From sequence record OQ031072: 64,000 bases of DNA. One strand, 5' to 3'. Each line of letters starts with the position of its first letter. The first letter of the stretch is position 1. The DNA is from Shigella phage SFPB. The position numbers and the translations under genes were made by a program. The notes under the pieces are model-generated. The model saw only the letters and a list, made by a program, of their open reading frames with translations, was not told where the DNA came from and made no database searches. Of this stretch, positions 32,815 to 35,267 are shown in pieces.

Positions 32815-33222
32815 ATGTCTAAAGTTGTTAAAATGAAAGCTCCGGTAGAGAAGTACAATGGTCAAGAACGTGAGACTCTGCGTTACCTACTGAAAGATGT
32901 TTGGTTCTATTACCTGAACACTATTCCACGTCCTCAAAAGGGTAAATCTGTGGATAAGCATTTTCCGGGCAAAGATTGTAACTACAGCGTTTCAATTCTG
33001 GCAAAAGATGGTAACAAGCTCTTTAAAGAGTTCACCAAATCCAAGCGCAATGCTGAAGGTTGGGATAAAGTTACTACAGAGGCTGTTGATGCAGATGACT
33101 TCGAAGAGAAGTTTGGTTGTGAGCCTCCGTTTGAAGCTGACACCTATCACATCCTGAAGGTTAGCCGTTCAGCAGCATATAAAGACGGTGCTGTGTGGTC
33201 AGCAAAACAGAGTTTCCTGTAA
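32815..33222 (+). CDS. hypothetical protein
   Basis: 135-aa ORF with SD. Confidence 0.5.
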   Translation: MSKVVKMKAPVEKYNGQERETLRYLLKDVWFYYLNTIPRPQKGKSVDKHFPGKDCNYSVSILAKDGNKLFKEFTKSKRNAEGWDKVTTEAVDADDFEEKFGCEPPFEADTYHILKVSRSAAYKDGAVWSAKQSFL

Positions 33223-33674
33223 TGCTGGTTGAAGAAATCAACGGTAAGCGTGTTGCAGTTAAGCAGCCTATGAAGAAAATCAAGGCAGCAAAATCTGATA
33301 AGCACGATGATGATAAGACTTACGATGTAATTCATCCAGATATTGCAGTTGGTAACGGCTCATTTGGTAGTGTGATTCTGGCGACTCACTTCTACACATT
33401 TGAAGGTAACGTTCTGACCAAGCCAATTCAGGAACAATTTATCATTGATACTCTGGTTCCTTACACTGGTGGTACTGGTGGTGCTACTGAGACTGAACTG
33501 GATGAAGATGAACTGGCAATGCTTGGTCTTGCAGGTGTTGAAGACAACGGTGAAATCACTGAAGAAGATGCAAAAGATTCTGGTGATGAAGGTAAAGGTG
33601 GTGATGACGATGACGACGACCTACCAAACCCAGATGATGACGACGAAGATGATTTCGAAACTGACGACGAGTAA
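33222..33674 (+). CDS. protein with long acidic C-terminal tail (possible ssDNA-binding or replisome-interacting protein)
   Basis: C-terminus ...DDDDDDLPNPDDDDEDDFETDDE; TAATG-coupled; sits between helicase and flap endonuclease. Confidence 0.35.
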   Translation: MLVEEINGKRVAVKQPMKKIKAAKSDKHDDDKTYDVIHPDIAVGNGSFGSVILATHFYTFEGNVLTKPIQEQFIIDTLVPYTGGTGGATETELDEDELAMLGLAGVEDNGEITEEDAKDSGDEGKGGDDDDDDLPNPDDDDEDDFETDDE

Positions 33675-33691: not shown

Positions 33692-33721
33692 AAAGCCCTG
33701 TACAGACGTATGGGGCTTTTT
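33692..33721 (+). terminator. rho-independent terminator
   Basis: AAAGCCC-N14-GGGCTTT then TTTTT. Confidence 0.55.
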
Positions 33722-33736
33722 CGTATGGAGAGTACA

Positions 33737-34777
33737 ATGGAACAATACACCTTAACAAAGCTCCCAGAGAGCGTTACACACGTCTTTATTGACTCTGATA
33801 GCATTGCTTACAAAGGTGCTTGTGTAGTTGAAAAAGCAAAGTACAAGTATGTGAATAAAATCACTGCTGAAGAATCCGACGCTTTTGATAGTGCAAAACT
33901 GGCAGCACAATGGCTGTCTGACCAAAGAGTTTTAACTGAAGAGTTAGGACTTGACTTTGATGAAGATGAATGGGAAAGACAGACTTGGAAGGAGGCTAAG
34001 AGTGAAGCTGAAGCAATTATGGCTACACAGCAAGTTCTTCAGGAGTGGTTGAAAGTCGTTGGTAAAGAACGCAAATGGATGGGTTACCTTACTGAGAAAG
34101 GTGTTCACAAACACAAGGATATCAAAGGTCTTGAACACCAATATCAAGGTAACAGAAAAGAAGCTGTAACACCTACACACCTAGTTGCTTGTCGTGAGTA
34201 TCTTCTGTCACGACCAGAGTTTAAGCTCTTAAAAGGGGGCTTCGAAGCAGACTCTATCGTTATTGCAAAAGCTGAGAAGATGGGGAAAAAAGCTGCTCTG
34301 ATGAGTATTGATAAAGACCTTCGTCAAGCTGAAGGAACTTACTGTATTGATATGACTTACGAGAAAGCTCCATTAATTTTCATTGCAGATAATAACGTTG
34401 GTGAGATTTGGGATTGCCCTATCAAATCTAAACCGAAAGCTAAGAAGACAGTCGGAGTAGGTTTTAAATTCCTCTGCTATCAAGCTGTAGCAGGTGATAA
34501 TGCAGACAACTACTTCGGTTTAAAAGGTGCTGGTAAGGTTGCGGTGATGAATGCACTGGAAGGTAAAACTACCTACAAAGAGTGCTTAGATGCCATCTAT
34601 GAACTTTATGCTAAGAAAGAGTCATACACTTATGAATCGTGGGATGGTCAGATTGTGACAAGAACTCCACTAGAATTAATGGAGCAACACTTCTGGATTG
34701 CTTATCAAGAACGAAATCCTAAAGATGATTTTACGTTTAAAAAATACAATTGGGAGCCAGTTATGAATGAAGATTAA
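33737..34777 (+). CDS. 5'-3' exonuclease / flap endonuclease (RNase H-like); start trimmed
   Basis: H3TH-like segment LCYQAVAGDNADNYFGLKGAGKVAV; N-terminal acidic nuclease fold residues. Confidence 0.6.
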   Translation: MEQYTLTKLPESVTHVFIDSDSIAYKGACVVEKAKYKYVNKITAEESDAFDSAKLAAQWLSDQRVLTEELGLDFDEDEWERQTWKEAKSEAEAIMATQQVLQEWLKVVGKERKWMGYLTEKGVHKHKDIKGLEHQYQGNRKEAVTPTHLVACREYLLSRPEFKLLKGGFEADSIVIAKAEKMGKKAALMSIDKDLRQAEGTYCIDMTYEKAPLIFIADNNVGEIWDCPIKSKPKAKKTVGVGFKFLCYQAVAGDNADNYFGLKGAGKVAVMNALEGKTTYKECLDAIYELYAKKESYTYESWDGQIVTRTPLELMEQHFWIAYQERNPKDDFTFKKYNWEPVMNED

Positions 34778-35267
34778 AGGATTTGGAAATTGCCCTGTTT
34801 ATGGACATTGGGTTTCACTGTGCGGGGAAATTGACCCCGCTAACTATTTTGGTTTTGTCTATTTAGTATACTGTAAGAAAACTGGACAATATTATATTGG
34901 GAAGAAACAATTTAATAACGTCACTAAGAAAAAGGTTGCTGGAAAGACCAGACGTAAAGTCGTGACAAAAGAAAGTGATTGGATGACTTATCAAACATCT
35001 TCTGAGTACATTAAGAAGGATATTGAATCTTTTGGTGAAAAAGAGTTTGACTTCTACATCATCCAGACTTACTATACGCGAGGTGGCTTAGTTTATGGCG
35101 AAGCTAACCTACAACATAAGTTTGACGTCATGACAAAAAGGATTGACTCTAAGCTTCGACTCTTCTACAATGCGAACATTGCAGCAATCAAGTTTCTTAC
35201 AAAAGAGACTTATGATGAAGCTGAGAAGAGAATCACTAAAATCATGAAACTTAATGAGAGAGTTTAA
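34767..35267 (+). CDS. GIY-YIG homing endonuclease-like protein
   Basis: FGFVYLVYCKKTGQYYIGKK matches GIY-(N10)-YIG. Confidence 0.55.
   Translation: MKIKGFGNCPVYGHWVSLCGEIDPANYFGFVYLVYCKKTGQYYIGKKQFNNVTKKKVAGKTRRKVVTKESDWMTYQTSSEYIKKDIESFGEKEFDFYIIQTYYTRGGLVYGEANLQHKFDVMTKRIDSKLRLFYNANIAAIKFLTKETYDEAEKRITKIMKLNERV

Follow-up and report, generated by a model that had tools for sequence, protein, structure and literature searches.

In the homing enzymes of the SegE/NUMOD family, a nuclease is joined to a separate DNA-reading region. Long members of this family (230–390 residues) have C-terminal NUMOD3, NUMOD1 or helix-turn-helix (HTH) regions, and the intron-encoded GIY-YIG enzyme I-TevI possesses, besides a long linker, both a zinc finger and an HTH DNA-binding domain. 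Phage T4 EndoII (DenA) is a GIY-YIG enzyme that consists of the domain only, is encoded beside nrdB and initiates host-DNA degradation; T4 shields its own DNA by hydroxymethylcytosine modification. The gp3 endonuclease I of phage T7 and gp6, a 5′-3′ exonuclease of the flap endonuclease (FEN) family, cooperate in host-DNA degradation and in the processing of branched phage DNA. T4 SegE (205 residues) is listed as the product of a free-standing mobile endonuclease gene that lies between inh and uvsW and has uvsW as its target (PMC2988022). Here, we describe an open reading frame (ORF) for a SegE-type GIY-YIG protein of 166 residues in a stretch of 64,000 nucleotides (nt) from Shigella phage SFPB (record OQ031072; hereafter, the window), a Felix O1-like myovirus of the subfamily Ounavirinae and the genus Mooglevirus. 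Judging from the sequence, we favor, with some reservation, a reading in which this protein is a catalytically competent, non-mobile endonuclease consisting of the domain only, whose gene is fixed in the replication/nucleotide-metabolism operon of Ounavirinae and translationally coupled to that of a FEN-type exonuclease, and which would feed this exonuclease with entry nicks. The gene has a Seg-like ancestry; however, its architecture, distribution, selection and co-inheritance with the exonuclease speak, on present evidence, against a mobile homing gene.

Family, fold and architecture of the GIY-YIG protein

A preliminary description of the window had placed the ORF directly downstream of a flap endonuclease gene, with an overlap of 11 nt, had given it GIY-N10-YIG spacing and had taken its product for a Seg-like free-standing homing endonuclease. 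Its position, ATG start and length were recovered exactly (Table 1), as was the overlap, which runs from the ATG of the ORF to the TAA stop codon of the upstream gene (ATGAAGATTAA). The spacing holds as well, since the segment FGFVYLVYCKKTGQYYIGKK (residues 28–47) has ten residues between Y32, the end of FVY, and Y43, the start of YIG.

By family and by predicted fold, the protein is a GIY-YIG nuclease. First, it matches the Pfam family SegE_GIY-YIG (PF19835; E=1.1e-27, 97.1 bits against a cutoff of 25) over residues 22–138 and profile positions 11–123 of 123, and it matches phrog_447 at E=1e-47; an exhaustive hidden Markov model (HMM) search found 2275 representative clusters of the family at E≤1e-3. 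Second, T4 SegE aligns with the family profile in hhalign at 96.6% probability (E=6e-10), with F-V-Y, Y-I-G-K, Y-x-G-S-G, the Glu and Y-Y-N in register. SegE and the NUMOD-bearing Seg-type enzymes share this homologous catalytic domain, with the third motif in the general form Y-x-(G/T)-S-(G/S). Third, residue conservation was scored in an alignment of 160 family representatives that included the NUMOD-bearing long forms, and G29, F30, Y32, Y43, G45, K47, W72, Y75, S78, E112 and N135 are invariant or nearly so. An absence of the catalytic residues on alignment, which would have spoken against the preliminary description, was not observed: the motif tyrosines, Glu112 and Asn135 are all present, and only the motif-B Arg could not be placed.

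An AlphaFold model built from 80 sequences (predicted local distance difference test [pLDDT] 96, predicted template modeling score [pTM] 0.90; a run with 10 sequences left residues 106–148 unmodeled) has the GIY-YIG fold, with a three-stranded sheet and helices on its flanks. In addition to the elements in Table 1, the model has a helix at residues 80–89, a strand at residues 94–102 and an extended segment with Asn135, and Foldseek gave a match in agreement for I-TevI. When PDB chains were searched by sequence with the family profile, only chance matches were returned, and a scan of NCBIfam gave sub-threshold matches only. The catalytic domain of I-TevI (PDB 1LN0) is 14% identical to the protein, and the hhalign alignment of the two has a probability of 7.7%. 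Helix alpha1 of I-TevI (Arg27/His31) is replaced here by a Lys/Arg-rich beta-hairpin insertion (NNVTKKKVAGKTRRKVVTKE), and Arg27 of this helix aligns weakly to the hairpin region in a low-probability alignment. T4 SegE also differs from the protein in lacking this basic hairpin, where the hhalign alignment has a gap of 19 residues. A zinc site at the N-terminal Cys9/His14/Cys19 was considered and ruled out because Cys9 and Cys19 are not conserved.

The protein differs from its long relatives at the C-terminal end. No Pfam or NCBIfam domain was found past residue 138 of the 166 residues, and the model adds one C-terminal helix only. By contrast, all 10 of the long relatives scanned (263–393 residues) had a C-terminal match to a NUMOD- or HTH-family Pfam domain, approximately half of these matches being below the curated cutoff, and the tails found were of the NUMOD3, NUMOD1 and HTH types. 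As far as sequence and model indicate, the GIY-YIG protein is a catalytic domain alone, without a DNA-binding module; it ends at the nuclease domain plus one helix and is smaller than SegE. It also differs from the structure-specific GIY-YIG nucleases Slx1 and At-HIGLE, which are eukaryotic and have a RING/PHD C-terminal domain. Moreover, the Slx1 lineage is without the C-terminal Asn (PMC1564403), whereas Asn135 is invariant in the family described here.

Distribution, selection and co-inheritance with the exonuclease

The identification of the upstream gene as a flap endonuclease gene was also borne out. Pfam matches to its product are weak (E 0.03–0.1), whereas phrog_107 ("exonuclease") is matched strongly (Table 1), and relatives label the gene exodeoxyribonuclease or 5′-3′ exonuclease. 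Its stop codon lies within the GIY-YIG ORF, and a Shine-Dalgarno-like GGGAG lies 10 nt before the ATG of this ORF. The junction TTATGAATGAAGATTAAAGG is kept in relatives, and the two genes also overlap in the phage Bas63 (by 11 nt) and in the Erwinia phage Fifi318 (by 8 nt).

Over a region of 2.6 kb around the ORF, the window is 99.0–99.5% identical to the Shigella phages KPS64, Sf17 and Sf19, and 257 phage records match this region in megablast. The exonuclease was found at ≥60% identity in 255–257 records, and the GIY-YIG protein in 251 records at ≥80% identity and in 46 at 60–80%; among the latter are the Erwinia phages, in which identity of the exonuclease drops to 53%. Altogether, the GIY-YIG gene is in the same position in approximately 251–257 of the 257 related records, which span three genera (Mooglevirus, Felixounavirus and Kolesnikvirus), and no allele without it was found among these approximately 257 genomes. 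Every locus inspected (Moogle, Sf17, Bas63 [Felixounavirus], EC6, Erwinia phage Fifi318 [Kolesnikvirus] and seven IMG/VR contigs) has the order primase-helicase, 287-residue protein, exonuclease, GIY-YIG protein, small protein, MazG and NrdA. Synteny, which the preliminary description had proposed as a check, thus speaks against its label: the gene has the same slot in the three genera and not the sporadic pattern of a homing gene. With its near-universal presence in Felix O1-like phages and its conservation beside the flap endonuclease gene, it has the appearance of a functional component of the DNA machinery rather than of a selfish element.

A second endonuclease gene at the same junction serves as a local control. 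Approximately half of the relatives examined have a gene of ∼470–490 bp for an HNH(+AP2-like) endonuclease between the exonuclease and the GIY-YIG genes; it is present in Moogle, EC6 and the comparison loci L007, L008, L010 and L012, and absent from the window, L006, L009, L011, Bas63, Sf17 and Fifi318. This HNH gene is a sporadic homing-type element. Its presence and absence show how a mobile gene behaves at this junction, and the GIY-YIG gene behaves otherwise. The HNH insertion swaps the last codons of the exonuclease gene and rebuilds the TTATGAATGAAGATTAA junction (window positions 34760–34780; e.g., L002:2666-3004 and L088:1573-2064).

The GIY-YIG gene is under strong purifying selection. 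The ratio of nonsynonymous to synonymous substitution rates (dN/dS) was 0.025–0.058 against seven Moogle and Felixounavirus orthologues, with one more not estimable, and 0.22 against the Erwinia phage, which is far more distant and for which dS is saturated. Among the six genes of the block, the GIY-YIG gene has the lowest dN, ∼0.08 (exonuclease, 0.07–0.10; MazG, 0.17; small genes, 0.13–0.49), and the Erwinia phage orthologue has 63% identity in the GIY-YIG protein against 53% in the exonuclease. Across the three genera, the identity of the protein follows the genus relationships and the genome phylogeny.

The association with the exonuclease extends to distant phage lineages. We collected 80 IMG/VR loci with relatives of the protein, comprising 59 loci with short forms (<200 residues) and 19 with long forms, clustered their neighboring genes, built an HMM from the FEN neighbors and scored the loci with it. 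The largest neighbor family is that of the upstream gene, a 5′-3′ exonuclease (PF02739 and PF01367) of ∼240–260 residues in the distant lineages. Among the 54 short forms with upstream DNA, the FEN gene abuts or overlaps the GIY-YIG gene in 26, lies within 700 nt in 7 and is elsewhere in the locus in 5; among the long forms, it is present in only 1 of 19 (Fisher p=2.5e-5 versus short forms, a value that overstates independence because the contig sample is phylogenetically clustered into ∼5–8 lineages, which weakens the case for a partnership). The FEN-linked GIY-YIG proteins make up at least five groups with less than 50% identity between them, and a neighbor-joining tree unites them in a near-pure clade (56 short forms, 4 long forms). 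The pairwise identities of FEN and GIY-YIG proteins, taken from multiple alignments, are correlated (r=0.95, Spearman 0.75; 32 loci, 496 pairs), and the downstream genes in these contigs encode primase-helicases or family-A polymerases. This co-inheritance suggests that the pair behaves as a stable two-gene unit of the replication module.

Proposed function and alternative explanations

We suggest that the GIY-YIG protein may be a low-specificity or structure-specific nicking endonuclease that would be targeted to DNA by its basic beta-hairpin (residues 50–69) and possibly also by the FEN-type exonuclease. Its incisions would provide entry points for the 5′-3′ exonuclease. The outcome could be breakdown of host DNA that feeds the adjacent MazG and ribonucleotide-reductase salvage genes, trimming of branched replication-recombination intermediates, or both. 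Such a division of labor would be as in T7 gp3 with gp6, or in T4 EndoII with downstream exonucleases. The analogy to T7 is functional only; the fold of gp3 is not GIY-YIG, and its gene and that of gp6 are neither adjacent nor translationally coupled. T4 EndoII provides a precedent for a domain-only enzyme; however, it belongs to PF01541 and not to PF19835, and its gene is not coupled to a FEN gene. In the Felix O1 genome paper, hydrolysis of host DNA was expected and no DNase was found except the 5′-exonuclease (PMC3185647), and in the replication region of Sf17, neither a resolvase nor another DNase is annotated. This gap in the toolkit makes the GIY-YIG gene an obvious candidate for the endonuclease.

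Several observations besides the clustering of the contig sample weigh against this reading. Five residues define the GIY-YIG superfamily (PMC1564403; PMC2988022), and four of them are present here. Of the catalytic Arg and Glu for which a profile check had been proposed, the Glu is invariant, and the fifth residue, the motif-B Arg, could not be placed: no Arg is invariant in the family, and in a low-confidence alignment Arg27 of I-TevI falls near residues 52–55, where position 54 is Lys in this protein and Arg or Lys in 108 of the 160 representatives. No sequence relationship to T4 EndoII was detected (hhalign E 0.14), and a nuclease of low specificity would have to spare the phage DNA. The EC6 orthologue (L088:2061-2562) is split by a 1-nt insertion, an extra C after a run of six A, and is for this reason annotated as two overlapping ORFs; the split may be a sequencing error, or it may be a real pseudogene or an occasional inactivation, and the gene may, therefore, be dispensable in culture. 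No FEN–GIY-YIG fusion protein was found among the best 120 of 1072 matches. Finally, other family members adjoin genes of the gp46/gp47 type, and yet others lie next to nrdA (the long form of Aeromonas phage 65) or in unrelated places (a Stenotrophomonas phage and P-SSM2), while free-standing homing endonucleases also adjoin the conserved gene that they cut (PMC2988022). Adjacency alone is, thus, no proof of partnership.

The latter point leads to the best of the alternatives, which we nevertheless regard as unlikely: a true homing endonuclease gene that has swept to fixation, with its site in the adjacent exonuclease gene of genomes without the GIY-YIG gene, and that is kept by excluding the markers of competitors during coinfection. 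The T4 Seg enzymes adjoin the gene that they cleave (PMC2988022, Table 1 therein), and co-conversion could explain both the adjacency to and the co-inheritance with the exonuclease gene. The intact catalytic residues, the membership of the SegE/NUMOD homing-endonuclease family, the location of other family members beside conserved recombination genes and the label "GIY-YIG homing endonuclease" in relatives are also in line with this explanation. However, the protein lacks the DNA-binding domain with which it could read a long homing site, no genome without the gene was found among the approximately 257 related ones, and the start codon lies within the upstream gene instead of being inserted in intergenic space. 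Divergence of the gene follows the genome phylogeny in the three genera and that of FEN in the distant lineages. Moreover, a homing gene is expected to decay after fixation, and such decay is not seen (dN/dS 0.03–0.06, lowest dN in the block). While SegE is listed as mobile, the GIY-YIG gene is fixed and co-diverges with its neighbors. Hence, the preliminary description was right about a Seg-like GIY-YIG nuclease, and its homing part is not supported, in view of the missing DNA-binding module, the lack of presence/absence polymorphism, the purifying selection and the co-divergence with the exonuclease.

A different possibility is an anti-defense or host-takeover nuclease directed against a specific host nucleic acid (retron multicopy single-stranded DNA, plasmid or prophage DNA, or RNA), in which case adjacency to the exonuclease gene would be incidental; we consider this improbable. 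Phage nucleases can counter defenses, and a preprint on the PhageMaP method reports that a "GIY-YIG" protein of Bas63, gp77, counters the retron Ec67 (PMC11482910). The numbering in this preprint is that of the locus tags, with g79 and g80 as NAD+ biosynthesis genes and g84 and g85 as rIIA and rIIB (PMC11482910), so that gp77 is bas63_0077. This protein cannot serve as functional evidence for the GIY-YIG ORF, since it is an unrelated product of another gene, with no similarity to the ORF and no GIY-YIG match in Pfam; the Bas63 orthologue of the window gene is bas63_0057, which is not discussed in the text of the preprint (PMC11482910). In addition, PADLOC gave no match for the ORF, and accessory counter-defense genes are usually variable, whereas the GIY-YIG gene is fixed and is linked to FEN in unrelated lineages. 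The bas63_0077 gene (L087:2449-2964) encodes an HNH-like stretch (GHHKPVTKGGEHHCANW...N), and its homologue in Sf17 lies upstream of the Prs/NAMPT genes.

The lack of a placed Arg bears on activity. Other basic residues are well conserved, with K47 invariant, K/R46 in 159 and K/R105 in 152 of the 160 representatives. The alignment shows no Arg between the YIG and the GSG of SegE either, and yet SegE is listed as an active endonuclease (PMC2988022), which suggests that the enzyme described here is probably active. A catalytically dead GIY-YIG fold with a non-nucleolytic role, e.g., in assisting the exonuclease or the replisome by DNA binding or scaffolding, is accordingly hard to credit, given that both motif tyrosines, Lys47, Glu112 and Asn135 are each present in 160 or 159 of 160 sequences that include the presumably active NUMOD-bearing forms, and that SegE, listed as active, has the same Y-x-G-S-G/E/YYN layout.

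The reading that we favor, a fixed domain-only partner of the FEN-type exonuclease, can be tentatively extended beyond Ounavirinae. It is conceivable, although less likely than not, that the FEN exonuclease and the stand-alone SegE-type GIY-YIG protein make up an ancient, vertically inherited two-gene nuclease module common to Felix O1-like phages and to uncultured phages of several lineages, in which the GIY-YIG protein would be the missing endonuclease that opens host or branched DNA. Its domain could then be either a domesticated homing-endonuclease domain or the housekeeping ancestor of the NUMOD-bearing homing endonucleases.

Annotation, neighboring features and implications

The gene carries various labels in relatives, namely "GIY-YIG homing endonuclease", "hypothetical protein" and "NAD synthetase". 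The last of these is found in PHROG 447, in the RefSeq copies NC_042076 and NC_027293, in P-SSM2 (PSSM2_218, L004:3944-4381) and in many cyanophage records, and it was rejected, as no NAD_synthase match was found in Pfam (E≤1) or NCBIfam. It appears to be a propagated mislabel. A short homologue at 30–37% identity is present in approximately 390 cyanomyovirus records, and fragments of the protein (93 and 97 residues) are also among the database clusters. Two large T4-like metagenomic contigs (L091:214-4489 and L093:1-4507) have short members of the family just downstream of a pair of genes for a gp47/SbcD-like Metallophos protein and a gp46/SbcC-like AAA_23/SMC_N protein, a second recurrent link of the family to a recombination nuclease.

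Table 1. Positions in the window of the GIY-YIG ORF, its predicted elements and its junction with the upstream gene
Feature	Position	Strand	Remarks
Upstream FEN-type 5′-3′ exonuclease (flap endonuclease) gene	33710..34777	+	phrog_107, E=6e-64; annotation of relatives
Translational-coupling junction (candidate)	34752..34777	+	GGGAG 34752-34756, ATG 34767, TAA 34775-34777
SegE-type stand-alone GIY-YIG nuclease domain ORF	34767..35267	+	166 residues; ATG start; stop codon included
Motif A, G29-F-V-Y32 ... Y43-I-G45-K46-K47 (strands beta1, beta2)	34851..34907	+	Y32 159/160, Y43 160/160, K/R46 159/160; model strands 29-36, 42-48
Lys/Arg-rich beta-hairpin insertion, residues 50-69	34914..34973	+	Model strands 50-56, 63-69; candidate DNA-contact element
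W72-x-x-Y75-x-x-S78-S79 motif	34980..35003	+	W72, Y75, S78 160/160; counterpart of SegE Y-x-G-S-G, aligned to SegE GYLGSG
Glu112 codon, predicted metal-binding catalytic Glu (motif D)	35100..35102	+	E 160/160; model helix 105-118; aligned to SegE YMYEEE region
Tyr134-Asn135 codons (motif E Asn)	35166..35171	+	N 160/160, Y 144/160; aligned to SegE YYN
C-terminal amphipathic helix, residues 150-164	35214..35258	+	From the model; where long relatives begin the NUMOD linker

The genes of the block (exonuclease, GIY-YIG protein, small coiled-coil protein, MazG-like pyrophosphatase, two small proteins and NrdA) are tightly packed. The gene after the GIY-YIG gene probably starts at an ATG two bases past the GIY-YIG stop codon; this is where Moogle has the start annotated and where the PHROG match sets in, at residue 6 of the ORF as listed. 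Scans for promoters and terminators gave nothing beyond shuffled expectation. Within the GIY-YIG ORF, 55 nt from its start, lies a terminator-like hairpin, GCGGGG-AAATTGA-CCCCGC (34822–34840), followed by a T-rich run to position 34850. The Felixounaviruses have the same hairpin as GTGGGG...CCCCAC, with one compensatory pair change, and neither L008 nor the Erwinia phage has an intact stem; the hairpin is probably incidental. Upstream of the exonuclease gene, two ORFs of 135 and 159 residues (window positions 32815–33674) are the halves of one gene for a 287-residue protein (phrog_3877), separated by a frameshift near position 33216. The gene is whole in Sf17, Moogle, L006, Bas63 and the Erwinia phage, and the window is without one C of a CCC run in it (TTTCCCTG to TTTCCTG), through either a true frameshift or an error in sequencing. 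The C-terminal tail of the protein is very acidic (DDDDDD...DDEDDFETDDE), recalling phage single-stranded-DNA-binding proteins.

If the GIY-YIG protein is a fixed partner of the flap endonuclease, a widely propagated annotation would be corrected in hundreds of Felix O1-like genomes, in a group of phages that serve the typing and biocontrol of Salmonella and E. coli. Because Bas63 is genetically tractable, the prediction is directly testable. If true, it would provide a concrete candidate for the endonuclease of host-DNA breakdown, sought without success in the Felix O1 genome paper, and a tractable case for relating the nuclease domain of a selfish element to a nuclease with a housekeeping role, in either direction of change.

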